From an uncultured virus (IMG/VR IMGVR_UViG_3300009161_000038) (Duplodnaviria; Heunggongvirae; Uroviricota; Caudoviricetes): a stretch of 64,000 nt of DNA. A program made the position numbers and the translations under genes. The notes under the pieces are model-generated. The model was not told the origin of the DNA. It saw only the letters and a program-made list of their open reading frames with translations, and did not search any database. Where the stretch lies: the IMG/VR virus record IMGVR_UViG_3300009161_000038, one strand, 5' to 3'. Position 1 is the stretch's first letter, and every line of letters begins with the position of its first letter. Of this stretch, positions 2,648-28,432 are shown piece by piece.

Positions 2648-3379
2648 ATGTACGAGGTTGAAGTTTATAAATTAAAAGGCGGGGGATCTGGAATAATTTC
2701 TCCTCTTCCAGTACAGAGAGATTGGATGGATAATCTTCCATTTGATGCAGTATACAGATGTATGCCTATGACATTGGCTAACCAGATGGGGTATGGCATA
2801 TCATTTCCAGAAGATATCTCCTTTACCTGGGATGGGACATATGACTCAGAAGAAAATCATGGAATTACAGTACATTCTGGAGATACTTGGATACATAAAC
2901 ATAGAGGTTGGGCCACATTAGCTATATCTACAGGACTTAGATTTAAGACAGATAAGAATACTAGCATGTTGGCCTATCCTATTCCTAATAAGTTCTATGA
3001 AGGATTTCAGGTATATACAACACTTCTTTCCACCTCCTTTTTTAAAGGTGCATGGGAAATTACTTTGAGGTTAACCGAACCTAATAAGAAAATAACTATA
3101 CCTGCATATACACAAATAGCAGCATTTATGCCCTTTTCCGCCGCCGCACTTAATAATAGTAAAATTACTGTTAAATATAATGAAAGAATGTTAGAGGACT
3201 TTCCACCTGAAGATCAACATGCATATGTAGATAGTCAGACAGAACTTGGTAGGGGTACTGGACTTTATCGAAAAGGAATTGATCTAAGTGGCAAGAAATT
3301 AGGAGAACATGAAATATCCAAATTCACTCTCTTTTTCGACGATTCACTAGACCGAGAATATAAGAGATATAATGTATAA
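2648..3379 (+). CDS. DUF6065-like protein
   Basis: PLPVQRDWMD...YRCMPMTLANQMGY motif, recalled as typical of DUF6065. Confidence 0.7.
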   Translation: MYEVEVYKLKGGGSGIISPLPVQRDWMDNLPFDAVYRCMPMTLANQMGYGISFPEDISFTWDGTYDSEENHGITVHSGDTWIHKHRGWATLAISTGLRFKTDKNTSMLAYPIPNKFYEGFQVYTTLLSTSFFKGAWEITLRLTEPNKKITIPAYTQIAAFMPFSAAALNNSKITVKYNERMLEDFPPEDQHAYVDSQTELGRGTGLYRKGIDLSGKKLGEHEISKFTLFFDDSLDREYKRYNV

Positions 3380-7248: not shown

Positions 7249-9183
7249 ATGTCAAAAATTATTGAAAACCCATATGAAAATTTTATTGCATTGTCTCGTT
7301 ATGCAAGATGGATTTCAGAAGAAAACCGTCGTGAGACATGGGCAGAAACAGTAGATAGATATTTTGACTACATGATAAAGTATCTTAAAGACAACAATGG
7401 CTACGTCCCAGAACCAAATTTATTAAAAGAATTAAAAGAATCTGTTTACAATCGTGATGTAATGCCATCAATGAGATCTGTAATGACAGCAGGACCTGCT
7501 TTAGATAGAGACCATGTTGCAGGATATAACTGTTCGTTTATACCAGTAGATTCTCCACGATCATTTGACGAGACAATGTATATACTTATGTGTGGAACGG
7601 GAGTAGGATTTTCCGTTGAGTATAAATACATTAATAAGCTTCCAGCGATTCCAGAATCTTTTGAAAAGTCTACAACAGTAATTATTGTTGAAGATTCTAA
7701 GTCTGGTTGGGCAAAAGCGTTTCGTGAATTGCTTGCACTTCTTTGGTCTGGTCAAGTTCCTTCAATTGATGTAAGCAAACTTCGTCCCGCTGGCGCAAGA
7801 CTTAAAACTATGGGTGGTAGGTCATCAGGACCACAGCCATTAGTTAACTTGTTTGATTTTACAATTGCAAAATTTAAATCTGCAGCAGGTAGATCATTTA
7901 AACCAATTGAGGCACATGACATTATGTGTAAGATTGGAGAAATTGTGGTAGTTGGTGGAGTTAGAAGGTCTGCATTAATTTCTCTTTCTAATATTAATGA
8001 TATTGAAATGGCACAAGCAAAAACTGGTAATTGGTGGGAGCATAATGGACAACGTGCTCTTTCAAATAACTCTGTTGCGTATTCTCGTAAACCAGAGATG
8101 GAACAATTTATTGCAGAATGGAAATCCTTATATGATTCAAAATCAGGAGAACGAGGTATATACAATGTGGCCGCAGCTCAAGCCCAGGCAGCCAAGTATG
8201 GAAGAAGAGATCCAGATATACACTACGGAACTAACCCTTGTTCAGAAATTATTTTACGTCCTTATCAGTTTTGTAATCTTTCAGAAGTCGTACTACGTGA
8301 AAAAGATACAAAAAAAGATATTGAGCGTAAAGTAGAACTAGCAACAATTCTTGGAACATGGCAGTCTACTCTTACTAATTTTAAGTACCTTCGTAAAATT
8401 TGGAAAGATAACACAGAAGAGGAAAGATTACTAGGGGTATCTCTGACTGGACAATTTGGTCATCAGTTTATGTCTGGAAAAGAAGACTTGGTGTCTTTAG
8501 AAGCATTTTTAATGACTCTTAGAGAAAAAGCTAGAAAGACAAATAAAAAAGAGGCAGGAAATCTTGGAATTCCAGAGTCTGCTGCTATTACATGTGTAAA
8601 GCCATCGGGAACAGTATCTCAATTAGTTGGAGTATCTTCAGGAATGCATGCTTGGCATTCTCCGTATTACATTAGAACAGTTCGTGGCTCAAAAGGAGAC
8701 CCAATATCTACATTTTTAAAAGAAGTTGGGATTCCAGTAGAGGATGACGTTATGAAGCCAAACGACACCTATGTATTTTCGTTTCCAATAAAAGCTCCAG
8801 ACGGGGCTGTGGTTAGAAAAGATTTGACGGCAATTGAACACTTAAATATTTGGTTAGTTTACCAACGTGCATGGTGTGAGCATAAGCCATCTATCACAGT
8901 TTCAGTAAAAGAAGATGAATGGATGGAAGTAGGAGCTTGGGTATATAAAAACTTTGATGAAGTCTCTGGTATATCTTTTTTGCCCATGTCTGATCACTCA
9001 TACAAGCAGGCTCCGTATCAAGAAGTTTCTAAATTAGAATATGAAGACCTGGTTGCAAAAATGCCTAAAGAAATTAGATGGGCAGACTTGTATTTTTACG
9101 AAACAGAAGATGGCACATCTACAAATGCCACTCTTGCCTGTAGCTCAGACGGAAACTGCGAGCTAGTAGATATTTCTTCATGA
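7249..9183 (+). CDS. nrdJ: Class II (adenosylcobalamin-dependent) ribonucleotide reductase
   Basis: GYNCSF, VVGGVRRSA, GTNPCSEI, TCVKPSGT, C-terminal Cys pair ACSSDGNCE. No adjacent small subunit. Confidence 0.92.
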   Translation: MSKIIENPYENFIALSRYARWISEENRRETWAETVDRYFDYMIKYLKDNNGYVPEPNLLKELKESVYNRDVMPSMRSVMTAGPALDRDHVAGYNCSFIPVDSPRSFDETMYILMCGTGVGFSVEYKYINKLPAIPESFEKSTTVIIVEDSKSGWAKAFRELLALLWSGQVPSIDVSKLRPAGARLKTMGGRSSGPQPLVNLFDFTIAKFKSAAGRSFKPIEAHDIMCKIGEIVVVGGVRRSALISLSNINDIEMAQAKTGNWWEHNGQRALSNNSVAYSRKPEMEQFIAEWKSLYDSKSGERGIYNVAAAQAQAAKYGRRDPDIHYGTNPCSEIILRPYQFCNLSEVVLREKDTKKDIERKVELATILGTWQSTLTNFKYLRKIWKDNTEEERLLGVSLTGQFGHQFMSGKEDLVSLEAFLMTLREKARKTNKKEAGNLGIPESAAITCVKPSGTVSQLVGVSSGMHAWHSPYYIRTVRGSKGDPISTFLKEVGIPVEDDVMKPNDTYVFSFPIKAPDGAVVRKDLTAIEHLNIWLVYQRAWCEHKPSITVSVKEDEWMEVGAWVYKNFDEVSGISFLPMSDHSYKQAPYQEVSKLEYEDLVAKMPKEIRWADLYFYETEDGTSTNATLACSSDGNCELVDISS

Positions 9184-13810: not shown

Positions 13811-13878
13811 TTAAATAAAGGGCCAGGGGAGAGCCTGAAATCTCCCCAAAAAAACAATTAGGGGATATGTGAACTTAA

Positions 13879-14238
13879 ATGGCAACAACAGATAAAAACT
13901 TTAGAATAAAGAACGGACTCAATGTCGCAGGATCTGCCACATTCCAGTCTTCAGTCATACTAGGAACAACCCCTTTAAGATTCGATACAGCATCAAATAA
14001 ATTACAAATTCAATTAGATAATACTTGGGTTAACGTTGCACTTGCAACAGATATCCCAGACTTATCTGAAGAAATTTCATTTATGGACCTTGGTCTGGCA
14101 ATCGATTATGATGGAGAGCCTATATACACAGTTCAAGCCAACGGAGTAGACAATTCAGGCACAACTGGTGTAGCTAGTGGTGGAGATCCCTCTACCTCTT
14201 CATTTCAACTTGTTTTTGATTCAGGTTCAATAGCATAA
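13879..14238 (+). CDS. Virion-associated protein
   Basis: N-terminus MATTDKNFRIKNGL resembles MATVVKNFRIKSGL of 12524..13810. Confidence 0.6.
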   Translation: MATTDKNFRIKNGLNVAGSATFQSSVILGTTPLRFDTASNKLQIQLDNTWVNVALATDIPDLSEEISFMDLGLAIDYDGEPIYTVQANGVDNSGTTGVASGGDPSTSSFQLVFDSGSIA

Positions 14239-16026: not shown

Positions 16027-17343
16027 ATGGCAGCAGGTAAGAAATTCGGTAAAAAGGCACAGGCATCAAATGACTTTTTGGAGCCAAAAGCACCAACGTC
16101 AGTAGCCGCAACAGATGTAGGTTCAGGTCGTGCATTCAATAATGGACGTGCTGATGTAACGTTTTCTTTACCAGAAGACTCACCTGCAGCCACATCATAC
16201 ACAGTAACATCCTCTCCAGGATCATACACTGCGTCAGGAGCATCATCTCCCCTGTCTGTAACTGGTCTACAATCAAATACAGCATACACATTTACAGTTA
16301 TAGCAACAAATGCAGTTGGAAACTCGCCAGCATCTGCTGCGTCTAATAGCATTACTGCAACAACAGTGCCTGATACAATTTCAACTCCGTCAGCAGCAAA
16401 CAATGGAGCACAAAACAATAGAGCTTCCTGGTCAACACCAGCAGACGGTGGATCAGCAATTATTGATTATTATTTAGAAGATAATGGTGGAGGCGGAGAC
16501 GACAATAAGACCGTAGCAGTTGGAACAAACAGCGTAGATTTTGCAAGCCAAAACAATGACTTTGTTTGGAACTTTAGAGTGCGGGCTAGAAATGCTAATG
16601 GAAATGGAGCATGGTCTAATTATTCAGGAAATATTACTACAACCCCATTCAGCTTTGCACCGTTCGGCTTTACCCCGTTCGGCTTCACCCCGTTCGGCTT
16701 CACCCCGTTCGGCTTCACCCCGTTCGGCTTTACACCAGGAAAATCAATTGGAGCAGATACATTAATTCATTCAAAGGTTCCTGAAGGTCTTGTGTTAGCT
16801 CACAACGTTTCTGCAGGAGATATTCTGTACTCAGCAGCAATTGATGATTTGCCAATGGACGGAGTAGGACTAGAAGAAATTATTGAATCTTGGTCATCTG
16901 CTGCCCCACAAATTAATACTGATATTGAAACAACAGTGGTGTCTATTTCAGCAAACATTGCAATGACCACTTATGTAATTAACGGAAATAAATATACAAA
17001 TACACACTGGGTTCTAACCAAAAGAGATGGAATAGCAAGATTTATTTCAGCTAATGAAATTGTAGAAACAGATTTAATCTACTCTCCAACATTCAATGAT
17101 TGGCAGCCAATTATTGAGCTAAGAGTTTCAGAGGGACCAGAGTTAGTTATTACTATTAACACAGAGCCTTATGACGTATTCTTTACAGACAACTCTTTAG
17201 TCCACGACTCAGTTAGACTAGACATAACATCACCTAACGTTATTACTGAGCCAAACCAAAGCGTTTCTGAATCTCTAGAGGTACTTTACCAGCAATGGAA
17301 AGACTCTACAGCAGGAGACACCGACCCTACAACCCCTGCCTAA
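16027..17343 (+). CDS. FN3 x2 - (PFGFT)5 repeat - Hint domain protein
   Basis: FN3 signatures (GLQSNTAYTFTVIATNAVG, NFRVRARNANGNG), pentapeptide repeat, then Hint blocks SIGADTLI / YTNTH / SLVHDS. Confidence 0.8.
   Translation: MAAGKKFGKKAQASNDFLEPKAPTSVAATDVGSGRAFNNGRADVTFSLPEDSPAATSYTVTSSPGSYTASGASSPLSVTGLQSNTAYTFTVIATNAVGNSPASAASNSITATTVPDTISTPSAANNGAQNNRASWSTPADGGSAIIDYYLEDNGGGGDDNKTVAVGTNSVDFASQNNDFVWNFRVRARNANGNGAWSNYSGNITTTPFSFAPFGFTPFGFTPFGFTPFGFTPFGFTPGKSIGADTLIHSKVPEGLVLAHNVSAGDILYSAAIDDLPMDGVGLEEIIESWSSAAPQINTDIETTVVSISANIAMTTYVINGNKYTNTHWVLTKRDGIARFISANEIVETDLIYSPTFNDWQPIIELRVSEGPELVITINTEPYDVFFTDNSLVHDSVRLDITSPNVITEPNQSVSESLEVLYQQWKDSTAGDTDPTTPA
16645..16734 (+). repeat. 15-bp tandem repeat encoding PFSFA(PFGFT)5
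   Basis: Five units CCGTTCGGCTTYACM at 16660-16734 plus a degenerate unit at 16645-16659. Confidence 0.95.
16744..17208 (+). other. Hint (intein/hedgehog-type) domain, 155 aa, no endonuclease
   Basis: Ser1 (SIGADTLI), AHNVSAGD, block B TxxH (TNTH), VITINTEPYDVFF, terminal LVHD then Ser. Confidence 0.75.
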
Positions 17344-17348
17344 TAAGC

Positions 17349-17990
17349 ATGCTTAATTTAGTTAAGCATATTTACAATATGGGATTTGTTGGTGCAAAAT
17401 CAACAAAAGGTTTTATTTTTCCAATATTTAGAAAATACCCTAAGTATATAAAAGGTTCTTGGATTCAATGGACTTTAATGCAAGACGTAAATGGAAACAA
17501 AGGCATAGAATGCCTTTACCTTAATGATAAAAATCCTTCTGGAACATTAATATTTTCTAATTTTATAAATAACGAATATCCTACTTCATGGATAGACATT
17601 TCAAACATACAAAATGATAATATAAAAAAATGTAAAGATGCTGTGATAAATAGAGTTTACTGCCAGCCTTATTATAGAAGAAAAAAAATAAATATTTCAT
17701 TGGCCATATTGGGATATACTGTTTGGTGGGCAAAGTATAATGTTAGAGTTAGACAAGGTGTTTCTGCAAGCAAAACTGGATCTGCTATGCATAAACAATC
17801 AGCTAAATTAATATTAGCTTTAAGGTTTAAAAGATCAAAAAATAAAAAAAATGAAAATATAATTTTGGGAGAATCAAAAGAAATTATTACAGAGCCAGAC
17901 TTAGAGCACTTTAAAGATCCTATTTTACCAGCAACTTGGCATTCTCTCAGACCTTACGAAAAAAACCCAAATGAAATTTTAGAGAAATAA
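17349..17990 (+). CDS. Hypothetical protein, possible GNAT-like fold
   Basis: INRVYCQPYYRRKKI resembles GNAT motif A. ATG 17349 preferred over 17295, which overlaps the upstream gene. Confidence 0.5.
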   Translation: MLNLVKHIYNMGFVGAKSTKGFIFPIFRKYPKYIKGSWIQWTLMQDVNGNKGIECLYLNDKNPSGTLIFSNFINNEYPTSWIDISNIQNDNIKKCKDAVINRVYCQPYYRRKKINISLAILGYTVWWAKYNVRVRQGVSASKTGSAMHKQSAKLILALRFKRSKNKKNENIILGESKEIITEPDLEHFKDPILPATWHSLRPYEKNPNEILEK

Positions 17991-17995
17991 AAATT

Positions 17996-18556
17996 ATGAT
18001 AACAAAACTAGAAAACATTAGAAACGAATTCTTATATAAACAATATAAAGATATGATTGACTCAATGTATGAAGAAGTAGGTTCTGCAAAATGGGGAGTC
18101 AGAACAAAAATTAAAACAAAAAAAATTTCTTTAATTGATTATAAAACTTTTAATTTTTTTGGAATGTACCATAAAGAAATATACAAATTATATTTAGAAA
18201 TATCTAAAATTATTAAAGAAGAGTGCAAAAAAAACAAAATAAACTTTGAAAATAATTATTACTATTTATTAGGAAATTTACTAGATCAATCTGTCAACAA
18301 TTTTTTGGTGACAACTCCAGATAGAACAAGGTTAAATTTTTCTGGGATATATGTAATTAAAAGCAATAACAATAAAATGATAATTAATGAAAAAGAAATA
18401 GATACGCCAGAAGGTACCTTAATTCTATTTGATAAAGGAGATATAATAGATTTTTGTGATACAATAAATAAAGATAGTATGTTTTTATATTTTTCTGTAT
18501 CTACATTACAAAATTTGCACAGACAATACTATCAGAAATGGATTCCATTAGTTTGA
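17996..18556 (+). CDS. Degenerate 2OG-Fe(II) oxygenase-like protein
   Basis: Shares FNFF..YH.EIYKLY.E.S..IKE.C and QxWIPL with 20698..21348. No visible HxD/H ligands. Confidence 0.55.
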   Translation: MITKLENIRNEFLYKQYKDMIDSMYEEVGSAKWGVRTKIKTKKISLIDYKTFNFFGMYHKEIYKLYLEISKIIKEECKKNKINFENNYYYLLGNLLDQSVNNFLVTTPDRTRLNFSGIYVIKSNNNKMIINEKEIDTPEGTLILFDKGDIIDFCDTINKDSMFLYFSVSTLQNLHRQYYQKWIPLV

Positions 18557-19269
18557 TAAAGATTGAATTTCTTCCAAAGTATAGAGGACTTGAAAAAATA
18601 TTCCCAAATCCTCAATCGGTATCTTCATTGCTTCCAGAGTGGTGGAAAAAACAAAAAAGCTATTTAAATGATGATACATCTGTTCATAGCGGAAATATGC
18701 TTTTAACAGTAAAAAAATGTCAAGCTGTTTTTGATTCTATGACTTTTGGATATTACTTACTTTGCCCTATGGATTTAAGCATAGATGCTACAGGAGATAT
18801 TTTAAAAATTGATATTCCAAATGATACAAGAGAGTTTCAAAAATTTTTATTAGCTCATCATTTATCTGAACAAATAAAAGAATACCCTATTCCTAATAAT
18901 TTTCATAAGCAAGTTATAAGAATACATCCAATGTGGGTTGCCAGAACAGAGCCAGGGTATAGTTGTTTGTTTATAAACCCAATGCACGGAGAAAAAAGCC
19001 CTCTACAAGCTATCCCAGGGTTGATAGACACAGATAAATACGCTTCTGATGGTTATTTGTCTTTTTTTGTAGAAAAAGGATTTAAAGGAGTAATTGAACA
19101 AGGCACTCCAATTATTCAAATTATTCCTTTTAAGAGAGATGATTGGGAAAGCTCGCTTAATAAAGAAAAAGATTCTGATACACAAATTAGAGCCCAGCAA
19201 CTTTCGGTTAGATCAGTTTTTAGAAATGGTTATAGGAAAAAAATGTGGTCAAAAAAGATATTTCGATAA
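18538..19269 (+). CDS. DUF6065-related protein
   Basis: LPEWWK, TVKKCQAVFDSMTFGY, GTPIIQIIPFKRDDW. Paralog of 19945..20697. True start may be TTG 18553. Confidence 0.6.
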   Translation: MDSISLIKIEFLPKYRGLEKIFPNPQSVSSLLPEWWKKQKSYLNDDTSVHSGNMLLTVKKCQAVFDSMTFGYYLLCPMDLSIDATGDILKIDIPNDTREFQKFLLAHHLSEQIKEYPIPNNFHKQVIRIHPMWVARTEPGYSCLFINPMHGEKSPLQAIPGLIDTDKYASDGYLSFFVEKGFKGVIEQGTPIIQIIPFKRDDWESSLNKEKDSDTQIRAQQLSVRSVFRNGYRKKMWSKKIFR

Positions 19270-19952
19270 ATAAAACGTTTCCCATATTAAGGGCACCATT
19301 TGAATCTAATTCTTGGCTAGAGATGTCTTCAATGAGTTTTAAAGATATTTTAAAAGAATGCAACGTTTTTTATGATTGGGCAACCTGGGATCAAGTTTTA
19401 AAAAAATATAAAAATAATGTTTTAAAACCAATAAATTTATATGTAGATAATTTTGGAATCAAACCAGAAATAGAGATAGTTTCTAAAAATGAGATAAATC
19501 TAATATACAAGAATTATTCAGATATTCTTTGGCAAGGACATCCAACAAGCAATAAACAGGTTTCTAGTATATTTTATGCATCTGAAAAATCTATGGTTAG
19601 GCAGTTTTATCCATCATTTTTGTCTATTGAAAGCTTTAAAGACTTGTTAAATAAAAATAATTTTAAACAAGTTTCGGACAGAATTTTTAAGATATATGTA
19701 CCATGGATTGTTGATTGCGATGCAGAGTATAGTATAAAAAATATTAAAAAAGACCCAGTAATATGCATTATTGAGACTAGTGGGACCTTTGAAAAAACTA
19801 ATAATAATGATATAATAAAGGAACCAACTTTTATAGATTTTTGTTTTTTATCTAATGAAAAACAAATAAGGTTAATAGAGAGAAATACTCCACTATTTTA
19901 TATTTCTATAAAAGCTACAGAAAAGGTTATTAAAAAAATTATTAATGAGTGA
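19245..19952 (+). CDS. Hypothetical protein (possibly diverged DUF6065-related)
   Basis: KIYVPW and IERNTPLF echo motifs of the flanking paralogs. Confidence 0.5.
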   Translation: MVKKDISINKTFPILRAPFESNSWLEMSSMSFKDILKECNVFYDWATWDQVLKKYKNNVLKPINLYVDNFGIKPEIEIVSKNEINLIYKNYSDILWQGHPTSNKQVSSIFYASEKSMVRQFYPSFLSIESFKDLLNKNNFKQVSDRIFKIYVPWIVDCDAEYSIKNIKKDPVICIIETSGTFEKTNNNDIIKEPTFIDFCFLSNEKQIRLIERNTPLFYISIKATEKVIKKIINE

Positions 19953-20697
19953 TAATAATTTAATAATTAAATTCACCCCAGCAGAGGTTAATCTTAATTT
20001 TGAACCAAAAGACTATGACGCACCCTCTCCTGCCATAAATAATTTGCCAGAGTGGTATAAAAAGCTTTCCAGATTTCAAACCTCAAATGATTTGCTAAGG
20101 TTGTTTCCAGTAAATGATAGAGGAACAGACGGTAGCGCTGGCTCTACTAAATTATGTATGCCATTTTTTGATTCCTTAACAGCAGGTTATATGTTTTGCC
20201 TAGAAGATGATATTGAGGTAAGTTTAGATAAAAATGGGTTTCCTTCTATTAAAAATACAAATAATTTTATGCTAGTAGATAAAAGAAACATGATAGAAGT
20301 TGCAGTTCCACATGAACACCATCCAATGCATTATGGCTGGAAAATTCCTTGGCATTGCGAAACTCCACCAGGGTATTCTATTTTAATTACACACCCACAC
20401 AATAGACATGATCTTCCATTTACCACTCTTTCTGGAGTTATAGACTCCGATGAATGGAACGCACCAGTATTTACAGCATTTTTTCTAAAAAGAAATTTTA
20501 TGGGAACTATTAAAAAAGGAACGCCTATATTTCAAGTTTTTCCATTTAAAAGAGAAAACTGGGAAATGTCATTGGATTACTCCAAAGAAGACATAGTGGT
20601 AAAAAAAATCAAAGAAGAAAAAAGAAGAATATCAATATATTCATATTATAAAGATTTTATATGGAAAAGAAAAAACTACACAAGAAAAGAGAAATAA
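19945..20697 (+). CDS. DUF6065-related protein
   Basis: LPEWYK, TKLCMPFFDSLTAGY, TPPGYS, GTPIFQVFPFKRENW. Confidence 0.6.
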   Translation: MSDNNLIIKFTPAEVNLNFEPKDYDAPSPAINNLPEWYKKLSRFQTSNDLLRLFPVNDRGTDGSAGSTKLCMPFFDSLTAGYMFCLEDDIEVSLDKNGFPSIKNTNNFMLVDKRNMIEVAVPHEHHPMHYGWKIPWHCETPPGYSILITHPHNRHDLPFTTLSGVIDSDEWNAPVFTAFFLKRNFMGTIKKGTPIFQVFPFKRENWEMSLDYSKEDIVVKKIKEEKRRISIYSYYKDFIWKRKNYTRKEK

Positions 20698-21348
20698 ATG
20701 GAATACTTCCTATCTGGAAAAAATAAACCTAGCGGAAAACCTCACAAGTTTTTTGAAAGGATTTTAGATAATGATTTACAAGATTTGTCTTTATTTTTAC
20801 AAGATCAATATTCTAAAATTGAAAATTTAAGCATTAAAGGTATTACAGAAGTGGGCAAGTCAGACTATTGGAAAGAGTCTGGTAGTGTTTCTACTATAAA
20901 ATGGAGAGACTACAATGTTTTTCAATTTTATCATCCAGGAATTTACAAACTGTATAAAGAGCTTTCTGATGTAATAAAAGAAGCTTGTTCTTATTATGAT
21001 ATTGATTTTGATAAACAGCAATACATGGTGCAAGGATGGTTTAACATAAATTATGCAGAAGTTGGAAAACTAGATTGGCACGATCATGGAGGTCCTTATG
21101 CTCCTTATTTTCACGGATTTTATTGCGTAAAAGCAGAACCATCAATTACTTATTACAAAGTTTTTGAAAAAGAAACTGAAAATCACAATATAGATAACAG
21201 AATGATTGTTTCAGAAATGGGTCACCCTCATGCTATGGGAAGTTGGGACTGGGAAGGACCAAGAATTACAATTGCTTATGATATTATGCCATTAAATTCT
21301 ATCATTGAGGCAAAAGCAAGTCCTCAGCATTGGATACCACTTCTATGA
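20698..21348 (+). CDS. Putative 2OG-Fe(II) oxygenase
   Basis: WFNIN, WHDH, FHGFYCV, HPH, RITIAYD. Confidence 0.75.
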   Translation: MEYFLSGKNKPSGKPHKFFERILDNDLQDLSLFLQDQYSKIENLSIKGITEVGKSDYWKESGSVSTIKWRDYNVFQFYHPGIYKLYKELSDVIKEACSYYDIDFDKQQYMVQGWFNINYAEVGKLDWHDHGGPYAPYFHGFYCVKAEPSITYYKVFEKETENHNIDNRMIVSEMGHPHAMGSWDWEGPRITIAYDIMPLNSIIEAKASPQHWIPLL

Positions 21349-22010
21349 AAGAAAAAAAAGATCATAAATTTTTTGAAAGAACTTTAGATAATAATTTAGA
21401 AAATCTTTATAGTTTTTTGTTAGAAAAAAATAATGAATTAGTTGAACAGGCAAGGAAAGAAATGGGAGAAGGCTTAAATAAAGCCCTAGCTCAAGACCCA
21501 GGAATTCTGGATGCTATTGCTACAAAAAATAGTGACAGGTATAATATTTGGGAATTTGACAACCCAGAAATAAAAAAGTTAAAAGAAGCTATTGCTGACA
21601 TGACAAGAGAAGCTTGCGAGTACTATGGCTATAACGACAATTCGTCAAAATTTATTACCCATGGTTGGTTTAATTTAGATAAAAAAATAATTAACAACGT
21701 CCATTCGGTAGACCCAAGAAAAGACAGTTCGTTTTTCCACGACCATATGGACGGTTCAGGATTTCCACAGCTACATGGATTCTACTGCGTAAAAGCAGAA
21801 CCTTCGATTACTTATTATAAAATCAACAATAAAGATATTTTTGAAAATATTAATAAAAACAATAGAGCTATTTTATCAGAAACTGGCAACCCACATGGCA
21901 GAGACGACTGGTACGGGGATGAGCCAAGAATGACAATTGCCTATGATATTATATTAGTTCCAAAGGGACCAATGAATGAAGATAGTATTTTTACGGATCT
22001 GTTTGAATGA
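21345..22010 (+). CDS. Putative 2OG-Fe(II) oxygenase (paralog of upstream gene)
   Basis: HKFFER.LDN.L, FHDH, HGFYCVKAEPSITYYK, RMTIAYD. ATGA-coupled start at 21345. Confidence 0.75.
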   Translation: MKEKKDHKFFERTLDNNLENLYSFLLEKNNELVEQARKEMGEGLNKALAQDPGILDAIATKNSDRYNIWEFDNPEIKKLKEAIADMTREACEYYGYNDNSSKFITHGWFNLDKKIINNVHSVDPRKDSSFFHDHMDGSGFPQLHGFYCVKAEPSITYYKINNKDIFENINKNNRAILSETGNPHGRDDWYGDEPRMTIAYDIILVPKGPMNEDSIFTDLFE

Positions 22011-22828
22011 AAGATATTGGCATAGTTTTGTATTCTTTTCAAAATAAAGATTTAATAGAATTAGTTGAAAAAAATATAGAAAATTCCAGTGGATTAAACA
22101 ATTTATTTTTTTATATAATTGATCAAAACAATATTGATAGAAAAAAAAGTTTAAAGTCTAACTATTCAAATGTAAAAATTTATTACAAATATGTAAAATG
22201 GGATAGCATTAAAAGCCCAATTTTGCATAAACAAGAAGGGTATAGACTTTTCAAAAAAGAATACTTTTTGCTAATTGGAGATGGGGTAAGCCTAAATAAA
22301 AATTGGGACGAAGATCTAGTTCAAAAAATAGAACTACTCAGCCTCAATGAAGATTGTATAATTTCTGGAAATCACAGACTTATACCATATTTAGAAAACC
22401 CATTTATTGTTTCATATAAAAAAGAGCCTATCTCTGAAGACACATTGACAAAATATATAGATAAAGATTTTATTTTTACAAAATCTAAGTCTTTTTTATA
22501 TAACAAATTGCCAGGTTATTTAAAATATCATGGAGAAAGAGAACATTTAGCTATATATTTTAATTTTACAAAAATCTTTGCCCTTCCTACAACTTTTTTT
22601 AAAAATAAAACAATTGAGTTAGATAAGGTCGAATATTTGCCTTTTTCTATATATCACGGGTATAATGAGTTTGTGAGTAAATGGAGTTCCAGCATTAAAC
22701 AGGTGTTTGGATTAGAAATATCAAGTCTACCATTTTCAACAAACGATGTTTTGTATGATCCTTCTGGTTCATTAACAGACAAAGTTGGCGGAGAAAGATA
22801 TTTAAACTTTAAAGGAGTAATAAATTGA
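22007..22828 (+). CDS. Glycosyltransferase-like protein (GT-A fold)
   Basis: FYIIDQ, EYFLLIGDGVSLNKNWDEDLV, YHGERE pattern. DxD-type motif degenerate. Confidence 0.55.
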   Translation: MKDIGIVLYSFQNKDLIELVEKNIENSSGLNNLFFYIIDQNNIDRKKSLKSNYSNVKIYYKYVKWDSIKSPILHKQEGYRLFKKEYFLLIGDGVSLNKNWDEDLVQKIELLSLNEDCIISGNHRLIPYLENPFIVSYKKEPISEDTLTKYIDKDFIFTKSKSFLYNKLPGYLKYHGEREHLAIYFNFTKIFALPTTFFKNKTIELDKVEYLPFSIYHGYNEFVSKWSSSIKQVFGLEISSLPFSTNDVLYDPSGSLTDKVGGERYLNFKGVIN

Positions 22829-23373
22829 ACAGCATGATAAAAATTGTAGAAGATTTTATATCAGAACAAGATGCATTTGCCCTGATAGAAGAGATGCAAT
22901 CTCCTTCAAAAAGAAACCCGTACCCAGAGTATTATAAAGATAGAAATGGTGGAACTGCTTTTCCATACAATAATAGAGTAATGGATATTCTTAAAAAATA
23001 TTCAGTAAGAGCAAACCATATACAAAAAGAATTTTTTAATTTAAAAGATAATGTAATTGTTACCAAGGCTTTTGGATCATGGTGGCAACCAGGGCAAAGT
23101 GGAAGTCCTCATATTGATGCAATTGAAAAAGAACCATTTATAGAATACAGCACTGTAATTTACTTAAACGATGATTATGAAGGTGGAGAAATCTATTTTC
23201 CTAAACAAAATTTTGAGCACAGACCAAAATCCCTATCAGCTATTTTTTTCCCAGGAAATAAATATGATTATCTGCACGGAGTAAAAGAAATAACTAAAGG
23301 AAATAGATTTACTGCGCTTTACATGCAATCCACAAAGATGGACTTTGCCGACCCAGATTTTGGAGTATTTTAA
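22825..23373 (+). CDS. Prolyl 4-hydroxylase-like 2OG-Fe(II) oxygenase
   Basis: HID, YLNDDYEGGEIYF, HGV, GNRFT. Confidence 0.88.
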   Translation: MNSMIKIVEDFISEQDAFALIEEMQSPSKRNPYPEYYKDRNGGTAFPYNNRVMDILKKYSVRANHIQKEFFNLKDNVIVTKAFGSWWQPGQSGSPHIDAIEKEPFIEYSTVIYLNDDYEGGEIYFPKQNFEHRPKSLSAIFFPGNKYDYLHGVKEITKGNRFTALYMQSTKMDFADPDFGVF

Positions 23374-24026
23374 TGAATAGAGAAATTCTTTCCCTAGGAA
23401 TGGCTTATTATAAAAATATAATACCAGACCCTAAGTCTCTAATTAAAAAAATTGAAGATTTAGAAATAAAAAGAAGTGAGTCTGTTGGATACAATTCTCT
23501 TTATGTAAGAGGCTGGCAACCCTGGGATTACGATCACGGCGGAAAAGAAAAAACTGTTTTTTGTTGGCAAAAGTTTATCCCAAAATCTGAAGATATTTCA
23601 AAAGATGATCTATTTTATCAAGAACAAAAAGAAATATCAGATGTTTTATTTGGGGCATTAGAAAAAGGATTGCAAGACTATTTTTCTATTTATCCATACT
23701 CTCAAAAAAATATTAAATCAAGAGAAAAAACAATGCATCTTTTAAAGTATAAGGAATCTGGCTTTTTGCCAGCACATTCTGACCACGGAATTAGCAGCAG
23801 AGTTTTATCAGCACTTCTTTATTTAAACGATGATTACGAAGGAGGAAATATTAAATTTGAACATGCAGGTGTAAGTTTAAAACCAGAAGCAGGAAGTTTA
23901 TTGTTCTTCCCTTCTAATTACATATACGTCCACGAAGTATCGGCAATAACTTCTGGAATTAGATACGCTCTTCCAAATTGGTATCACAATAGATCTAAGC
24001 CATACTATTCGGATGGCACAGAATGA
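23373..24026 (+). CDS. Prolyl 4-hydroxylase-like 2OG-Fe(II) oxygenase
   Basis: HSD, YLNDDYEGG, FPSNY.YVHEV, GIRY. Confidence 0.88.
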   Translation: MNREILSLGMAYYKNIIPDPKSLIKKIEDLEIKRSESVGYNSLYVRGWQPWDYDHGGKEKTVFCWQKFIPKSEDISKDDLFYQEQKEISDVLFGALEKGLQDYFSIYPYSQKNIKSREKTMHLLKYKESGFLPAHSDHGISSRVLSALLYLNDDYEGGNIKFEHAGVSLKPEAGSLLFFPSNYIYVHEVSAITSGIRYALPNWYHNRSKPYYSDGTE

Positions 24027-24712
24027 CGGTTTTAGTAGTAGGAGCAGTCAGAGGAATTGGAAATGAAGTTGCCAAAAGGCTAGTCTCTTTAGGGCACGAA
24101 GTTATTGGAGTTGGAAGGCACGTCAGAAACTCTGATAATAGCGATACCTTTGAGTACATACAAACAGATATTGTTGATCAGGAAAAACTAGAAAGTTTAT
24201 TTAAATCAATTAAAGAAAGAAATATTGTTATTTCTGGAATTGTAAACTGTGCTGGTGCTTACTGGCCATCACCCGCTTATGGAGAAATTTTTCCACAAGT
24301 TGAGCAAATGATGAATGTCAACGTTTTAGGTCCCTATAATGTTATATCTAAATTTCTTGCTCTTGTAGACCCAGAGAAACATACTCCAATAGTTAACATA
24401 TCAAGCTTAGCGGCGCATCAAATAAATTCAGAGTCTATGTATTCAGCATCAAAAGCAGCTTTAGAAACATACACAAGGTCTTTAGCTAAACAAGTATGCG
24501 GTACTAAAATTAGGCCAAACTGTATAGCCCCAGGACCAATAAGAACTAGATTTACAAAATTTATGCCAGAAATTTATTTTCAAACTTTATTACTAGGTCA
24601 AGTTGTTCCGAAAGAGTATACTGTAACCGATATAGCAAATCTAGTAGAGTTACTTTTTGACGAAAAGTCTTCCAGCTTGTCGGGCCAGGTCTTTCACGTG
24701 GGCGGATATTAA
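24023..24712 (+). CDS. Short-chain dehydrogenase/reductase (FabG-like)
   Basis: GAVRGIG, VNCAG, NISS, YSASK, PGPIRT. Confidence 0.9.
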   Translation: MTVLVVGAVRGIGNEVAKRLVSLGHEVIGVGRHVRNSDNSDTFEYIQTDIVDQEKLESLFKSIKERNIVISGIVNCAGAYWPSPAYGEIFPQVEQMMNVNVLGPYNVISKFLALVDPEKHTPIVNISSLAAHQINSESMYSASKAALETYTRSLAKQVCGTKIRPNCIAPGPIRTRFTKFMPEIYFQTLLLGQVVPKEYTVTDIANLVELLFDEKSSSLSGQVFHVGGY

Positions 24713-24737: not shown

Positions 24738-26438
24738 ATGTCGTATAATCTTAGAGTTTTATCAGACAACCCGCTGGCTTTTTGGCCAAGCGGAACAGAT
24801 GATATTTCTGGATTTGACAATCAGGTATCAATATTCGGATCGGTAGATAACACAAATTTACCACTAGTTATTGGTGCAGAAAACTCTTCAAAACTTTCTG
24901 GAACTGCCGCCATTACCTACATAGATATAGATGGAATTGCGACTAAAAATTTTTCCGATGATCAATTTTCTATAGAATGCTGGGTTAGGGTAAATACTAC
25001 CTCTTCTTTAGAAATACCAATTGTAGGAGACTCTTCTAATGATATAGGACTATTTTATAAAAAAGGTAATATAGTATTTTCAATAGGTACAAAGCATATA
25101 GAGTACACTGTTCCTTTCTTAAAAAAATCTATATATATAGTTGCAGTATACAATAAGAATAAAATTATACTGTATATAGATGGAAAGATAGAAGCAGAAA
25201 AAGATCTGTCTGGGTTTTCTTTTTCAAATCAATCTATTACAATGAAGTCAGGACCAGTTAATAATAGTTTAGACTATATGCTCTTAAATTGTGTATCTTT
25301 TTATAGAAATTCTTTGACTAAAGATCAGGTTTTATCTCATTATTTAGAAAATAAATCTTTAAGCCCTACTCAAATAGTTTACCCAGACCAAGGTAATTTT
25401 TTTGAACTTACAGATAAATCAATTTCAACAAAGTATTCTTATTCCTATCCAGCCAATAAATCATGGCAGTATTTTATTAACGATAATAATTTATACTATA
25501 ACTCTCAAAAAGAATTTATCGGTGTTGTAAAGGGAAACGGAGATTCACAGTCTATTGTTATTGAGGATTTTATTACAATCCCAAGCGGACCAGAAATGAA
25601 CTCTTCAAGAATTGAATGGGACGGGGATAATGGAATATCTGTTTCGGTAAGTATAGATGGACAAAACTATCAATCTTGCGTTAATGGCCAACCCGTACCC
25701 CAGTATTCATTAAGCTCTTTTAGTCAAACAAGAAATTTATATATTAGGGTTTATTTTACAACATCAGACGATAGCGTATACCTTCCATCCTTAAAATTTT
25801 TATCCATAAGCTTTTACAATAATCAAAAAATTTATTCAAAAAATTCCTCTAATTATATAGCCAGCCAGCAAGACATCCCTGTAAGCAATAACAAATATGA
25901 AATACTTTCTACAGATAACAGAAACGGCATCAGCTTAAAAAATCTTTCATCGTTTTATATAAATACGACAACCCCAACAAAATCGATAGAGTTTTTTTAT
26001 ACACCGTATTCTATTCAAAATGGAGGGTTGGTTACATCTGTTGCTACAAGCGGGTACAGCGCAAGTAGCCTTACTTGGTCAAGCAATACAATATCTAAAA
26101 GCAATATATCCAAGATATACGTTAATGGGGTAGATAAGACAAGCCAGACTAATATAAATAATTTGTTTTTAAAAGATTCTCTTTACCACGTTGTTATTGT
26201 TTTTGAAAATAGCATATATGGAGAAATTTCTATTAATAAATCTAGCGTTTTGGGAGGGCAAAGCCTATATCAGAATTTGGCTACTTATGAATCAGCCCTG
26301 AGTGCCGAAAAAGTTCAGGATCATTTTAATAAATATGTATCTTCCCAAGGTACAATTATTGAAGATCAGCTAGGTAAAATGTCAGAGCTGTCGGTTGATT
26401 ATTTCAATTCTGACTGGATAGTGGTACAAAATATTTAA
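24738..26438 (+). CDS. Virion structural protein with LamG/ConA-like domain
   Basis: VLSDNPLAFW, FSIECW, LYIDG. Precedes the portal block. Confidence 0.7.
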   Translation: MSYNLRVLSDNPLAFWPSGTDDISGFDNQVSIFGSVDNTNLPLVIGAENSSKLSGTAAITYIDIDGIATKNFSDDQFSIECWVRVNTTSSLEIPIVGDSSNDIGLFYKKGNIVFSIGTKHIEYTVPFLKKSIYIVAVYNKNKIILYIDGKIEAEKDLSGFSFSNQSITMKSGPVNNSLDYMLLNCVSFYRNSLTKDQVLSHYLENKSLSPTQIVYPDQGNFFELTDKSISTKYSYSYPANKSWQYFINDNNLYYNSQKEFIGVVKGNGDSQSIVIEDFITIPSGPEMNSSRIEWDGDNGISVSVSIDGQNYQSCVNGQPVPQYSLSSFSQTRNLYIRVYFTTSDDSVYLPSLKFLSISFYNNQKIYSKNSSNYIASQQDIPVSNNKYEILSTDNRNGISLKNLSSFYINTTTPTKSIEFFYTPYSIQNGGLVTSVATSGYSASSLTWSSNTISKSNISKIYVNGVDKTSQTNINNLFLKDSLYHVVIVFENSIYGEISINKSSVLGGQSLYQNLATYESALSAEKVQDHFNKYVSSQGTIIEDQLGKMSELSVDYFNSDWIVVQNI

Positions 26439-26501
26439 ATATATTTAGAATATGGCAAAGATCTGGACTTTATTTTGAAATAATGGTAAACTTAGGGAAC
26501 A

Positions 26502-26846
26502 ATGGATATAAAAAACTTTAAACAAACGTCTGTAGAAGAAACAACTCTAGGGATATACGTCTGGGAGATGCCTGACGGAAGATGGGTTGGAGACGATGAT
26601 GGCAACTATCTTTCAATTACCTCATTAAAAGGAAATAGATCAAGAATTGATGCTCTTGCAAGAGAAGCCAGATCTTATGGAATTTATGAAGGCAGCCCTT
26701 TATTTTTATCAAATAGAAGGAAGATAGATGACGAAGAATTTGAGCATCAAAAACAAAGATTAGAGTGGGGATTAGTCCCAGATGCTTTAGACGTTGGAAG
26801 CTATAAAGATGAAATGAAAGCGTTAAGACAAGGAAAATCCAAATGA
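26502..26846 (+). CDS. Hypothetical protein upstream of portal
   Basis: 114-aa ORF, ATGA-coupled to the portal; TGGACT-N17-TAAACT promoter upstream. Confidence 0.75.
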   Translation: MDIKNFKQTSVEETTLGIYVWEMPDGRWVGDDDGNYLSITSLKGNRSRIDALAREARSYGIYEGSPLFLSNRRKIDDEEFEHQKQRLEWGLVPDALDVGSYKDEMKALRQGKSK

Positions 26847-28432
26847 TAGAATTTCTAAACGAAGACAATAGTTTTGTTCAAAACATAGATATTTCAGACT
26901 CGTCAGACTTTTCTAGATTTCATAACAAAGCCCCTGTTCTAGACAGCGACCCATTCAATATAACAGAATCAGAATTAAAGAAAGTTCAGGGTTTGGGCAA
27001 TAACTTTCGTAGAAAAATGTCTAGAGAGTTATCAAAAAGATTTGTTGGTCAAGACGGAACAGCCACACAACAGAACCTCATGCAGCAAGCAGTTACTGGT
27101 TACGCAATGTTTGACCTGGTTGAGCCAACATATAACATGGAATATCTTTCTAAAATTTATGAAATTTCACCATACAACTATGCAGCAATTAACGCAAAGG
27201 TTGCCAACATTGTTGGACTTGGGTATACTTTTGTTGAAACAAAAAAAGCAAATGATGCTCTAGATAATATTGAAGATCAAAAGCAATTAGATCGAGCTCG
27301 AAAGAAGTTAAATAAGCTTAGACAAGATTTAGACGCTTGGCTAGAAAAAACCAACGAAGAAGAAACTTTCACAGAAACATTAATAAAAGCCTATATTGAC
27401 CTAGAGGCAACTGGAAATGGATTTATTGAAATAGGAAGAACAGTTGCAGGTAATATTGGATACATAGGACACATACCAGCAAAAACCATGCGTGTTCGTA
27501 GACTAAGGGACGGATTCATTCAGCTTCTTTATGGAAAGGCAGTGTTCTTTAGAAACTTTGCAGATTTAGAAACACCAAATCCTATTGCAGATGGATCAGA
27601 TAGACCAAATGAAATTATTCATTTAAAGAAATACACACCAATGAACAATTATTATGGATTGCCAGATATTGTTTCTGCACAAAACGCAACTGCAGGAAAT
27701 GAATTTGCTGGTAAGTATAATTTAGACTATTTTGAAAACAAAGCCGTACCTAGATATATTATTACCGTTAAGGGAGCCAAGCTCTCTCCAGAGTCAGAGC
27801 GTAAACTTTTAGAATTTTTCCAAGTTGGATTAAAAGGAAAAAATCATAGGTCCTTGTATGTCCCACTTCCAGCAGATAGCCCAGATTCAAAAGTTGAATT
27901 TAAAATGGAGCCAATTGAAGCTGGAACCCAGGAATCATCATTTAACGTGTATCGTAAGTCCAACAGAGACGAAATTCTTTTAGCCCACAGAGTTCCAATA
28001 AATAAAATAGGAGTTCCAGAAGGAATTAGTTTAGCCTCTGCAAGAGACGCAGATAAAATGTTTAAGGAGCAGGTGTGTAGACCAGCACAAGACATTTTAG
28101 AGAAAAAATTAAATAGAATTATATTAGAAAAAACAGATGCGGTAATGCTAAAGTTTAATGAATTAACTTTAACAGACGAAGACACCCAGTCTAAAATTGA
28201 TGAAAGATATTTAAGAATGCAGGTAATTACCCCTAACGAAGTTAGAATTAGGAAGGGAATGATTCCTCGAGATGGCGGGGATCAGGTTGTAGATTTAAAA
28301 GCTCAGGAGAAATCTGAGCAAACCGCACAAGCCCTAAATTCTAGAAAAAGAACTCAGGAAAGATCTGCCAACTCACCAGATAATTCTGGGGAGGGCAGAA
28401 ATGAAAAAGGTGGGGGAAGAGTCACCGAATAA
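26843..28432 (+). CDS. Portal protein
   Basis: DLEATGNGFIE, YYGLPD, FFQ/YFEN.AVP, ILLAHRVP, ITPNEVR. Confidence 0.92.
   Translation: MIEFLNEDNSFVQNIDISDSSDFSRFHNKAPVLDSDPFNITESELKKVQGLGNNFRRKMSRELSKRFVGQDGTATQQNLMQQAVTGYAMFDLVEPTYNMEYLSKIYEISPYNYAAINAKVANIVGLGYTFVETKKANDALDNIEDQKQLDRARKKLNKLRQDLDAWLEKTNEEETFTETLIKAYIDLEATGNGFIEIGRTVAGNIGYIGHIPAKTMRVRRLRDGFIQLLYGKAVFFRNFADLETPNPIADGSDRPNEIIHLKKYTPMNNYYGLPDIVSAQNATAGNEFAGKYNLDYFENKAVPRYIITVKGAKLSPESERKLLEFFQVGLKGKNHRSLYVPLPADSPDSKVEFKMEPIEAGTQESSFNVYRKSNRDEILLAHRVPINKIGVPEGISLASARDADKMFKEQVCRPAQDILEKKLNRIILEKTDAVMLKFNELTLTDEDTQSKIDERYLRMQVITPNEVRIRKGMIPRDGGDQVVDLKAQEKSEQTAQALNSRKRTQERSANSPDNSGEGRNEKGGGRVTE

Follow-up and report, generated by a model that had tools for sequence, protein, structure and literature searches.

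The locus analysed here, part of a 64,000-nt window from an uncultured, siphovirus-like phage of 111 kb whose backbone resembles that of Streptomyces phages of the Stanwilliamsviridae, raises the question of whether a repeat-bearing protein with a Hint domain and the oxygenase-rich genes behind it form one protein-modification system. Our analysis leans towards a different account, in which the repeat-bearing gene (gene A) encodes a self-cleaving fibre-type precursor and the 11 genes that follow are mixed, co-transcribed cargo, not a dedicated pathway. An ORF check found the coordinates given in the initial annotation for gene A (16027-17343) and for all genes of the block to be correct; all features given below with coordinates lie on the plus strand. 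Gene A is preceded by three fibre-type genes (12524-13810, 13879-14238 and 14291-15994; tail-fibre PHROGs, Mtd_N at 3.5e-15), and the block is followed by a backbone segment (24738..28432; phrog_9394 also matched) consisting of a LamG protein (24738-26438; Pfam Laminin_G_3, 8.3e-9), a small conserved gene and the portal (26843-28432; Pfam Phage_portal, 8.3e-32), the same flanks by Pfam and PHROG as originally described.

The 438-aa product of gene A comprises a conserved N-terminal peptide, two FN3 domains (two fn3 stretches in Pfam, E 4e-12), an FG-type repeat, the Hint domain and a C-terminal helix tail. Pfam, TRF and translation together bore out the two FN3 domains and the PFSFA(PFGFT)5-PGK segment: the repeat occupies residues 206-237 (16642..16737) ahead of PGK, has one Pro per five residues, and is encoded by a 15-bp tandem array at 16642-16730 (period 15, 5.9 copies, 90% matches). 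A homologue search with gene A gave 3450 matches at E<=0.001, many of them from contigs about 110-115 kb long, and the repeat was kept in 22/22 aligned homologues (46-94% identity) in 3 to about 13 copies. Because relatives encode the same repeat residues with different synonymous codons, and copy number varies even between proteins that are 89-92% identical, the repeat is no chance feature and appears to be selected as a peptide. Repeat and Hint are also found together behind a PASTA domain (locus L053, E 7.6e-10) and at the end of a 937-aa protein (L034), and judged from these sequences the pair is a portable module. Three relatives (L119, L122 and L154) have the FN3 domains and the repeat and stop there, with no Hint, and many others end directly after the Hint with no C-extein.

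For the Hint domain itself, the Pfam Hint model gave no match in the C-terminal 204 aa of gene A, and the evidence comes from structure prediction. An AlphaFold2 model of residues 224-438 (pLDDT 82.7, pTM 0.78) returned 43 Foldseek matches in the PDB at E<=0.001; all matches listed were intein, BIL or Hedgehog Hint domains, with 6y75 BIL2 (5.7e-7), the 1mi8 DnaB intein and 2lwy BIL at the top. The BIL-like domain, its borders placed by alignment, extends from Ser240 to Asp394 (16744..17208), with a predicted scissile bond at Lys239|Ser240, a block B of TNTH (His327), and an LVHD end followed by Ser395. Position 1 is a nucleophile in 26/26 aligned sequences (Ser in 23, Cys in 3), and the block-B His of the (T/S)xxH pattern is kept in 24 of the 26. 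The fold search and these conserved residues upheld the original call and, at the level of a predicted structure, confirm a real, intein-like Hint fold.

Comparison with known systems placed the domain close to the BIL Hint domains (2lwy of C. thermocellum; 6y75/6tmm, Tetrahymena BIL2), with which it has in common the Hint fold, the position-1 nucleophile, the (T/S)xxH block, and a fixed, non-mobile placement behind variable passengers of non-essential surface-type proteins. It differs from them in its prevalent Ser at position 1, in the His-Asp rather than His-Asn ending of the window's copy, in always being preceded by an aromatic-Gly repeat within a phage fibre gene block, and in escaping the Pfam Hint model; our literature search found no paper on a phage protein of this repeat/Hint type. 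In Hedgehog/Hog autoprocessing domains, two of which (1at0 and 6tyy) were among the fold matches, the Hint is likewise C-terminal to a passenger released via an ester intermediate and is followed by a short extra segment, which in Hedgehog serves sterol recognition. Gene A departs from these in having no support for an adduct such as cholesterol and in a C-terminal junction that looks intein-like (His-Asp|Ser). Phage tailspikes and fibres are also known to carry self-cleaving C-terminal chaperone domains of the Peptidase_S74 type, which similarly remove themselves from a fibre-type protein once their task is complete, but the fold and chemistry differ, and no Peptidase_S74 match was seen in the Pfam scan.

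Under the account we favour, gene A would be the last gene of the fibre-type block and would be made as a precursor in the order FN3-FN3, aromatic-Gly-Pro repeat tail, BIL-type Hint and short helix. By an N-to-O acyl shift at Lys239|Ser240, the Hint would most likely release itself, and the remaining FN3-FN3-(PFGFT)5PGK would carry the greasy repeat as its free C-terminus. Natural Hint-less relatives terminate in the repeat, so that the processed protein probably consists of FN3-FN3 and the FG tail. A competing proposal is that the Hint does more, splicing the repeat onto the 44-residue segment behind it (17209..17340) or, as in Hedgehog and BIL-ubiquitin-like systems, passing an ester-activated C-terminus to another nucleophile; were ligation true, a fibre-accessory protein would end up covalently joined to some component of the virion or the host. 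That segment contains a conserved LYQQWK helix (model residues 191-206), which we take to recall the sterol-recognition region of Hedgehog, and the Hint ends in VHD|S, an intein-type His-Asp|Ser junction, in 11/26 aligned sequences, 10 of which continue into the helix tail (the other, L039, stops a few residues later). In forms that stop shortly behind the domain, conservation of the +1 Ser is incomplete, and the top structural match is the BIL2 domain of a Tetrahymena BIL-ubiquitin-like locus, both of which also speak for splicing or ligation. We nevertheless judge either outcome improbable: the tail is conserved among tail-bearing homologues but missing from many others, and the many relatives with no C-extein, together with the three with no Hint, indicate that the common product is a free repeat tail. 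An intein end with Asp instead of Asn is also expected to react slowly, and the acceptor has no support.

Downstream of gene A, we counted eleven ORFs (17295/17349-24712), one more than the ten originally reported, and their tight packing and shared orientation were as described, with stops and starts that overlap or abut. As no terminator-like sites were found on the plus strand inside the block, this overlap predicts joint expression with a late structural gene, which would be unusual for nucleotide-metabolism genes. GC content is 0.27-0.33 in the cluster versus 0.41 in the fibre genes.

Among the enzymes, genes J (22825..23373; phrog_61, 1.1e-16, with PDB matches to the B. anthracis P4H) and K (23373..24026; PF13640, 2e-14) keep HxD...H...R, invariant in the alignment. 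All 42 PDB matches of a J/K profile at E<=0.01 were prolyl-hydroxylase/PKHD-type chains, including P3H1 (1.3e-9), the B. anthracis P4H (2e-8) and the PBCV-1 P4H (5c5t, 1.3e-5), which substantiates their original assignment as two P4H-type oxygenases and marks both, by motif and profile, as intact prolyl-hydroxylase-type enzymes. Gene G (20698..21348), an HxH...H protein, resembles PF13759 (2OG-FeII_Oxy_5) through this motif, its language-model neighbours (17/30 in PF13759 clusters, score 0.96) and its distant relatives (13/100 with sub-threshold PF13759 matches); H (21330..22010) is a paralogue of G with 38% identity and the same motif, and both are probably PF13759-like oxygenases. The degenerate oxygenase of the initial annotation is gene C (17996..18556), which aligns with G and H as a paralogue and lacks the His motif, and its SDR is gene L (24023..24712; Pfam adh_short, 6.7e-36), a classical short-chain dehydrogenase/reductase that is FabG-like and below every NCBIfam cut-off. 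Two further labels held in part. Gene I (22007..22828) is glycosyltransferase-like through its family, of which 4/11 members match PF11397 'Glycosyltransferase (GlcNAc)' (best E 2.8e-5, one above the Pfam cut-off), but the window's own protein has no PF11397 match, and its resemblance to the family of the Skp1 hydroxyproline GlcNAc-transferase is weak. Gene B (17349..17990; the ORF is open from 17295, with 17349 the presumed start) had been called GNAT-like, and its family alignment does contain a short motif, R-x-Y-T-S-P-x-x-R-[KR]-x-G, that we assume to resemble GNAT motif A, but Pfam, PHROG and NCBIfam gave no match.

The proteins described as two or three DUF6065 relatives required a correction. 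Family membership stood for D (18538..19269; phrog_7084, 1e-43) and its paralogue F (19945..20697; phrog_7084, 1.7e-32; aligned with D in one alignment), while E (19245..19952) is possibly a degenerate relative (hhalign against the D/F profile, probability 24%, E 8e-4); a further DUF6065 gene lies outside the cluster (2648..3379; PF19541, 3.3e-20). The correction concerns the fold. With an AlphaFold2 model of D (pLDDT 87.3), all Foldseek matches listed were dUTPases or dCTP deaminases, and in a VIA-wide search the best 22 hits belonged to the dUTPase superfamily (Z 9.9-6.1), the next scoring 4.8 and 3.1. D is accordingly predicted to have a dUTPase/dCTP-deaminase fold, and F likewise by homology to D. 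The motifs GLIDTDxY and GTPIxQ may resemble dUTPase motifs; no sequence-level match of D or F to dUTPase was found, the likeness being one of fold. D also resembles the trimeric dUTPase/dCTP deaminase superfamily in its reductase neighbourhood in relatives, and the family differs from it in having two to four paralogues per genome. The order gene A, D-like gene, ribonucleotide reductase occurs in distant relatives (L057, L063, L064, L071, L041 and G001), and a D homologue adjoins the reductase in the haloarchaeal virus HRTV-5; in the present genome the reductase is located at 7249..9183 (phrog_367, 1.5e-185).

These observations bear on a proposed role in nucleotide metabolism or DNA modification for the whole block or, at the least, for D, E and F, with dUTPase-like proteins shaping the dNTP pool and the oxygenases and glycosyltransferase hydroxylating and glycosylating bases. 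The fold of D and its reductase neighbours favour it, as does the lack of any canonical dUTPase family match among the ORFs of this genome scanned. Gene K alone gave weak Tet-like matches (PDB 5cg8, 1.1e-4; Tet_JBP, 0.0043), and in another lineage, where the cassette is beside a carbamoyltransferase, a CHAP lysin and proteases, an APS-kinase-like P-loop kinase and a nuclease adjoin it as well. Taken as a whole, we consider this proposal rather unlikely, since the Tet matches in the PDB vanish when the J/K profile replaces K, no hydroxymethylase or DNA methyltransferase family match was found among the ORFs scanned, the block is embedded in the same orientation among late structural genes, and D and F are dUTPase-like by fold only.

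In a dedicated system of the kind suggested initially, J, K, G and H would hydroxylate the repeat at Pro and perhaps at Phe or Thr, I would glycosylate the resulting hydroxyl groups, L and B would tailor the sugar, and the Hint would expose the decorated tail on the virion. The intact P4H-type enzymes facing a Pro-containing repeat under peptide-level selection, the overlapping co-oriented genes and the PF11397 matches all argue for it. In the Skp1 pathway, a P4H plus a GlcNAc-transferase glycosylate hydroxyproline, and the pairing of a P4H-type oxygenase with a PF11397-like glycosyltransferase is common to both; the present case differs in the window's own gene I lacking the match and in having no Skp1-like target. 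Tight linkage within this phage group also supports it: for loci with at least 3 kb of sequence downstream of gene A, a G- and/or D/F-family gene lies within 3 kb in 58/59, and gene A is upstream in 51/58 G-anchored loci, in 13 of them within 300 nt, Hint-less variants with G directly behind them included. J/K-like genes were seen downstream of gene A only where the repeat is at least 9% Pro. The suggested co-occurrence of repeat/Hint and enzyme genes is partly contradicted, however, by oxygenase/glycosyltransferase cassettes with no repeat/Hint gene nearby (7/58 testable loci, plus 11 with shorter flanks) and, in a 90%-complete genome (G001), 31-51 kb away from it. J/K genes are missing from the neighbourhood in several lineages whose repeats contain 13-23% Pro, and what follows the PASTA-FG-Hint gene is a fibre gene, not enzymes. 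The phage analysed here also encodes, elsewhere in its genome, additional PF13640 members and another protein with a Pro-rich repeat. The same junction in relatives holds unrelated cargo (ribonucleotide reductase, cobalamin adenosyltransferase or an APS-kinase-like gene), and the dUTPase fold of D fits poorly. Chlorovirus PBCV-1 also encodes a P4H-type enzyme (5c5t) and Pro-containing repeats (Eriksson 1999, as cited in PMC7019647), but this giant virus of eukaryotes has neither a Hint nor a substrate gene next to the enzyme, and, according to the review, the role of its P4H, the one viral P4H studied, is unknown, and virion proteins showed no detected hydroxyproline. Only position links the enzymes to the repeat, and we regard a dedicated system as possible but doubtful; the families of J, K, L and G/H stand, but their reading as a tailoring cluster is weakened by the D/F fold, the unrelated junction cargo and the cassettes lacking gene A.

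The related suggestion of a RiPP-like product, in which the repeats would serve as cores, to be modified and then released as small peptides, draws on the identical repeated units beside enzymes and is very improbable. Pfam, PHROG and NCBIfam scans of the block revealed no leader peptide, recognition element, protease or exporter family, there are no cleavage sites between units, copy number drifts freely, and the repeat forms part of proteins with folded FN3, PASTA or larger passengers, encoded among virion genes.

In the mixed-cargo account that we prefer, the 11 genes would sit at a junction of variable content, where the fibre block meets the LamG/portal backbone, and, by family, would not make up one pathway: D, F and perhaps E would be dUTPase-fold proteins that elsewhere travel with ribonucleotide reductase, accompanied by the PF13759-like G and H, the degenerate C, the glycosyltransferase-like I, J and K, the SDR L, and B. 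This account is favoured by the dUTPase fold of D and its reductase neighbours, the other cargo at this junction in relatives, the lower GC of the cluster, the genes beside the cassette in another lineage, and the enzyme genes scattered elsewhere across the same genome, namely a P450, a catalase, further PF13640 members, an Asp/Asn hydroxylase and a carbamoyltransferase. Of the block's products, only J, K and I, with G and H as less certain additions, are plausible as enzymes that could act on the repeat.

The gene that opens the locus (gene A, 16027-17343, plus strand, 438 residues) was described in the initial annotation as carrying two FN3 domains, a PFSFA(PFGFT)5PGK repeat and a Hint domain ahead of a block of enzyme genes, and all of the described features are present in the sequence, with eleven rather than the reported ten open reading frames (genes B to L, 17349-24712) behind it. 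The Hint domain (Ser240-Asp394) is borne out by a fold search and not by any Pfam model: no Hint family in Pfam matched residues 235-438 of gene A at E<=10, and an AF2 model of the C-terminal region (pLDDT 82.7, pTM 0.78), computed from an alignment of 26 C-terminal regions of gene A homologues, gave 43 Foldseek matches in the PDB at E<=0.001, all of those listed being Hint domains. The list was led by BIL2 of Tetrahymena, the mini-intein of DnaB and the BIL domain of C. thermocellum, and it included Hedgehog domains. Inteins, Hedgehog and BIL proteins of bacteria are established carriers of Hint domains. Of the 26 aligned sequences, 23 have Ser and 3 have Cys at position 1 of the domain, and the histidine of the block B (T/S)xxH motif (TNTH in the window) is kept in 24/26, with Gln in the other 2.

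At its C-terminal end the domain of the window reads LVHD; next come Ser and a tail of 44 residues that includes a conserved helix. The three Cys-type sequences (3/26) close with a terminal His-Asn plus one residue, and most of the remaining sequences stop a few residues past an Asp. A splicing-competent type (class 1 intein or A-type BIL domain) was rejected for gene A, as the window has His-Asp|Ser and not His-Asn with Cys, Ser or Thr at +1. A mobile intein was rejected as well: the Hint-less homologues stop at the repeat with no C-terminal tail, where contiguous exteins would be expected of a mobile intein, the Hint domain of gene A spans about 155 residues without an endonuclease, and its position is constant across homologues of 46-94% identity. 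Three relatives without a Hint domain (loci L119, L122 and L154) end after their FN3 domains and an FG-type repeat, and many other relatives have nothing beyond the Hint domain; from these two groups we infer that passenger domains with a free repeat tail are the product common to all forms, which argues for a predicted N-terminal self-cleavage at Lys239|Ser240. Where the domain closes with His-Asp|Ser, the repeat may instead be spliced onto the tail, or transferred to another nucleophile, which is the less likely outcome. With self-cleavage at Lys239|Ser240 as the preferred reading, the assignment of gene A as a predicted variant of a BIL-type self-processing protein is well supported by the modeled fold. 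The gene A family would then be a compact natural self-cleaving module, and a large conserved family of phage fibre modules in which a Ser/Asp Hint domain uncovers a greasy FG repeat conserved at the peptide level. We found no publication on such a family: the search of the Hint/BIL literature returned reviews and phage genome papers with nothing on a phage FG-repeat/Hint family, and the repeat motif was absent from the literature searched.

The repeat is present in all 22 of 22 gene A homologues, down to 46% identity, and the same repeat residues are encoded in relatives by different, AT-rich synonymous codons; judged from these sequences, it is selected at the peptide level. Copy number varies even where proteins share 89-92% identity, their lengths being 423, 428, 433 and 438 residues. 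Within the window, the repeat DNA (16642-16730) consists of nearly identical units with a GC3 of 0.83 versus 0.28 for the gene, and these features, taken with the AT-rich codons of the relatives, suggest a recent slippage expansion of the array in the window's lineage. Gene A is the only site of the repeat in the window's genome. Elsewhere among the relatives, the module of FG repeat, Hint domain and helix is fused to a PASTA domain (E 7.6e-10; locus L053, 9731-10765) or terminates a 937-residue protein (locus L034, 7868-10678), and the repeat-plus-Hint unit is, on the reading of these fusions, portable between passengers. Some genomes hold two genes of the repeat/Hint type. In one of the Hint-less homologues (L119, 5482-6705), a Cys-rich peptide follows straight after the FG repeat, with seven Cys among the final 23 residues.

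The virus record containing the window is 110,973 bp long with about 35% GC, has direct terminal repeats and is rated complete. By family searches of its open reading frames, its layout is siphovirus-like. The portal gene is at 26843, and the protease and capsid protein genes are at 28451 and 29819; the tape measure gene (35740-42012) encodes 2090 residues, minor tail proteins extend as far as 52633, and replication genes come next. The portal is 57-59% identical to those of Streptomyces phages, and Streptomyces phage BillNye (Stanwilliamsviridae) has the same backbone order (lysozyme, reductase, large protein, small protein, portal). Between the ribonucleotide reductase (7249-9183) and the LamG/portal backbone, the content consists of fibre-type genes, gene A and the enzyme block, the last with a GC of 27-33% versus 41% for the fibre genes. 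In distant relatives, the stretch from gene A to LamG/portal holds a D-like gene and/or G and H followed by a class II ribonucleotide reductase, and some add a cobalamin adenosyltransferase or an APS-kinase-like gene at the same place; this junction is a cargo site. Megablast with the whole enzyme block returned no match, and scans for promoters (60 versus 55.5±7.8) and terminators (9 versus 6.7±2.1) stayed at chance level.

The proposed linkage between the oxygenase cluster and repeat/Hint genes held in most loci but not in all. Among 72 viral loci anchored on gene A, 59 had at least 3 kb downstream, and a gene of the G and/or D/F families lay within 3 kb in 58 of these 59 (both in 35, D/F alone in 12, G alone in 11, neither in 1); the full B-to-L block was present at every locus where gene A reached about 44% identity or more and the flank was long enough. 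When the best 80 of 401 loci were anchored on G instead, gene A lay upstream in 51 of the 58 whose upstream sequence reached 5 kb or more, 13 times within 300 nt. It was absent upstream in the other 7, and the same A-less architecture recurred in 11 loci with shorter flanks; as all loci come from related phages, none of these counts represents independent events. The A-less loci carry a cassette of E-like, F-like, G, I-like, J-like and K-like genes, with a carbamoyltransferase, an APS-kinase-like gene, a CHAP lysin, a nuclease, proteases and PA14 proteins as neighbors. In one genome of this type (G001, 98.6 kb, 90% complete), a gene A homologue that combines an (FGA)n repeat with a Hint domain is found 31-51 kb away, with a D-like gene and then a class II reductase behind it. 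Wherever J/K-like genes were seen downstream, the repeat has 9% Pro or more. Where Pro makes up 13-23% of the repeat, several lineages have G/H or D nearby without J/K, and the (FGA)n lineages have D only. A strict rule that P4H-type genes occur only with Pro-rich repeats was rejected, given the many 13-23% Pro repeats with no J/K nearby and the confounding by phylogeny.

The enzyme block is real and predicted to be co-transcribed, but it is mixed. The annotation of J and K as prolyl-hydroxylase-type oxygenases was upheld: the HxD...H...R motif is kept, K matches PF13640 at 2e-14 and profile matches agree, with the iron triad (H135, D137, H187) and the 2OG-binding R197 invariant across 20 J/K-family sequences. 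All 42 of the 42 PDB matches to the J/K profile at E<=0.01 are prolyl 3-/4-hydroxylases, PHD2 or PKHD-type proteins, including P3H1 (1.3e-9), the B. anthracis P4H (2e-8) and the PBCV-1 P4H (1.3e-5). J and K thus have the predicted features of PF13640 prolyl-hydroxylase-type 2OG-Fe(II) oxygenases, a family that also holds enzymes with other substrates. The short-chain dehydrogenase/reductase (SDR) assignment of L was likewise confirmed, L being of the classical type (adh_short 6.7e-36, 124 bits versus a cut-off of 26.6). For B, C, E, G, H and I of the window, comparison of the sequences with Pfam, NCBIfam and the PDB yielded nothing usable, and B shows a short GNAT-like motif and nothing else. 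The paralogues G and H share WHDH...HG.Y...HPH, whose histidines are missing from a further copy, C. Neither G and H nor 24 relatives matched PF13759, and no other curated model fits; 17 of 30 language-model neighbors of G are PF13759 clusters, and among 100 distant relatives from an exhaustive profile search (353 matches), 13 match PF13759 below the cut-off, two match PoNi_C, one matches PF13640 (a two-domain protein) and nothing else appears. These results point to G and H as putative PF13759-like oxygenases. A comparison of G with J/K by hhalign showed no relationship (probability 1%), so G/H cannot be placed in the P4H clade that way. G had no match in 50,697 phage records, and a word-indexed protein search with the G/H/C profile found close unannotated relatives only. 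In the family of the glycosyltransferase-like gene I, PF11397 is matched by 4 of 11 members (best 24.2 bits versus a cut-off of 21) and not by the window's own I, whose sequence has no match in the PDB. PF11397 is the GlcNAc-transferase family named for glycosylation of Skp1 hydroxyproline.

The RiPP-like layout of the initial annotation did not survive these searches: no leader-core with a recognition element, protease or exporter was found among the twelve genes by Pfam, PHROG and NCBIfam, and a RiPP reading is very unlikely. That J, K, I and perhaps G/H form a candidate modification pathway for the repeat is a tentative proposal of fairly low probability. In its fuller form, J/K (and perhaps G/H) would hydroxylate (PFGFT)n, I would add a sugar and the Hint domain would free or hand over the decorated tail of a virion protein; such hydroxyproline glycosylation is unlikely. 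It would be akin to the modification of extensin or Skp1, of which we know no case described for any bacterial virus. Orphan 2OG oxygenases are numerous in aquatic phages, and the repeat would, if the proposal is true, be a first substrate for them; a defined candidate substrate beside such enzymes would be valuable, the present support being positional. Collagen-like GXY runs, an alternative P4H target, were absent from the fibre genes and from the rest of the genome.

A different direction is indicated for D and F, for which DUF6065/phrog_7084 is the only sequence family matched. An AF2 model of D built from 30 sequences (pLDDT 87.3) retrieved exclusively trimeric dUTPases and dCTP deaminases among the Foldseek matches listed. 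In a scan of 48,161 chains independent of Foldseek, the top 22 all belonged to the dUTPase/dCTP deaminase superfamily (Z 9.9-6.1), the best being 3h6x (rmsd 3.2 over 120 residues), with Z falling to 4.8 and 3.1 below them. The fold was examined on the D model alone, F being a homologue of D in the family alignment, and the D/F sequence profile found no dUTPase in the PDB; the D/F motifs may resemble catalytic motifs of dUTPases, which number five. The modeled fold and the reductase neighborhood point to nucleotides as a possible concern of D and F and warn against a single-pathway reading of the whole block. They would be a first functional lead for DUF6065/phrog_7084, the name DUF6065 being absent from the literature searched. 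E may be a degenerate relative of D/F (hhalign probability 24%). Homologues of DUF6065/phrog_7084 with 27-29% identity were seen in 52 phage records, mostly of haloarchaeal tailed viruses; in Halorubrum tailed phage 5 (HRTV-5, KC292022.1, gene 36), the D homologue lies between baseplate/fibre genes and a ribonucleotide reductase.

Scattered over the genome beyond the block is an oxidative and tailoring-type gene set that is unusually large for a phage. The window itself adds a cytochrome P450 (4498-5940, minus strand; PF00067, E 3.9e-72) and, a little over 1 kb from it on the opposite strand, two more genes: another true DUF6065 member (2648-3379, E 3.3e-20) and a sulfotransferase-like one (3372-4121). 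Outside the window, in the full genome (contig C1), are a carbamoyltransferase and two more PF13640 oxygenases, together with a catalase (E 1e-86), an Asp/Asn beta-hydroxylase, a Zn-dehydrogenase and CmcI-like methyltransferases at 93508-96353. A 675-residue protein with a proline-rich (EEPPVVV)n tandem repeat (108928-110955, minus strand; 12029-14056 of locus L167) is a possible second target for prolyl-hydroxylase-type enzymes. One of the PF13640 oxygenases (105777-106511) lies about 2.4 kb from this protein; the other is at the opposite end of the genome (2858-5421), with the carbamoyltransferase, a TipAS-domain protein and an SNase.
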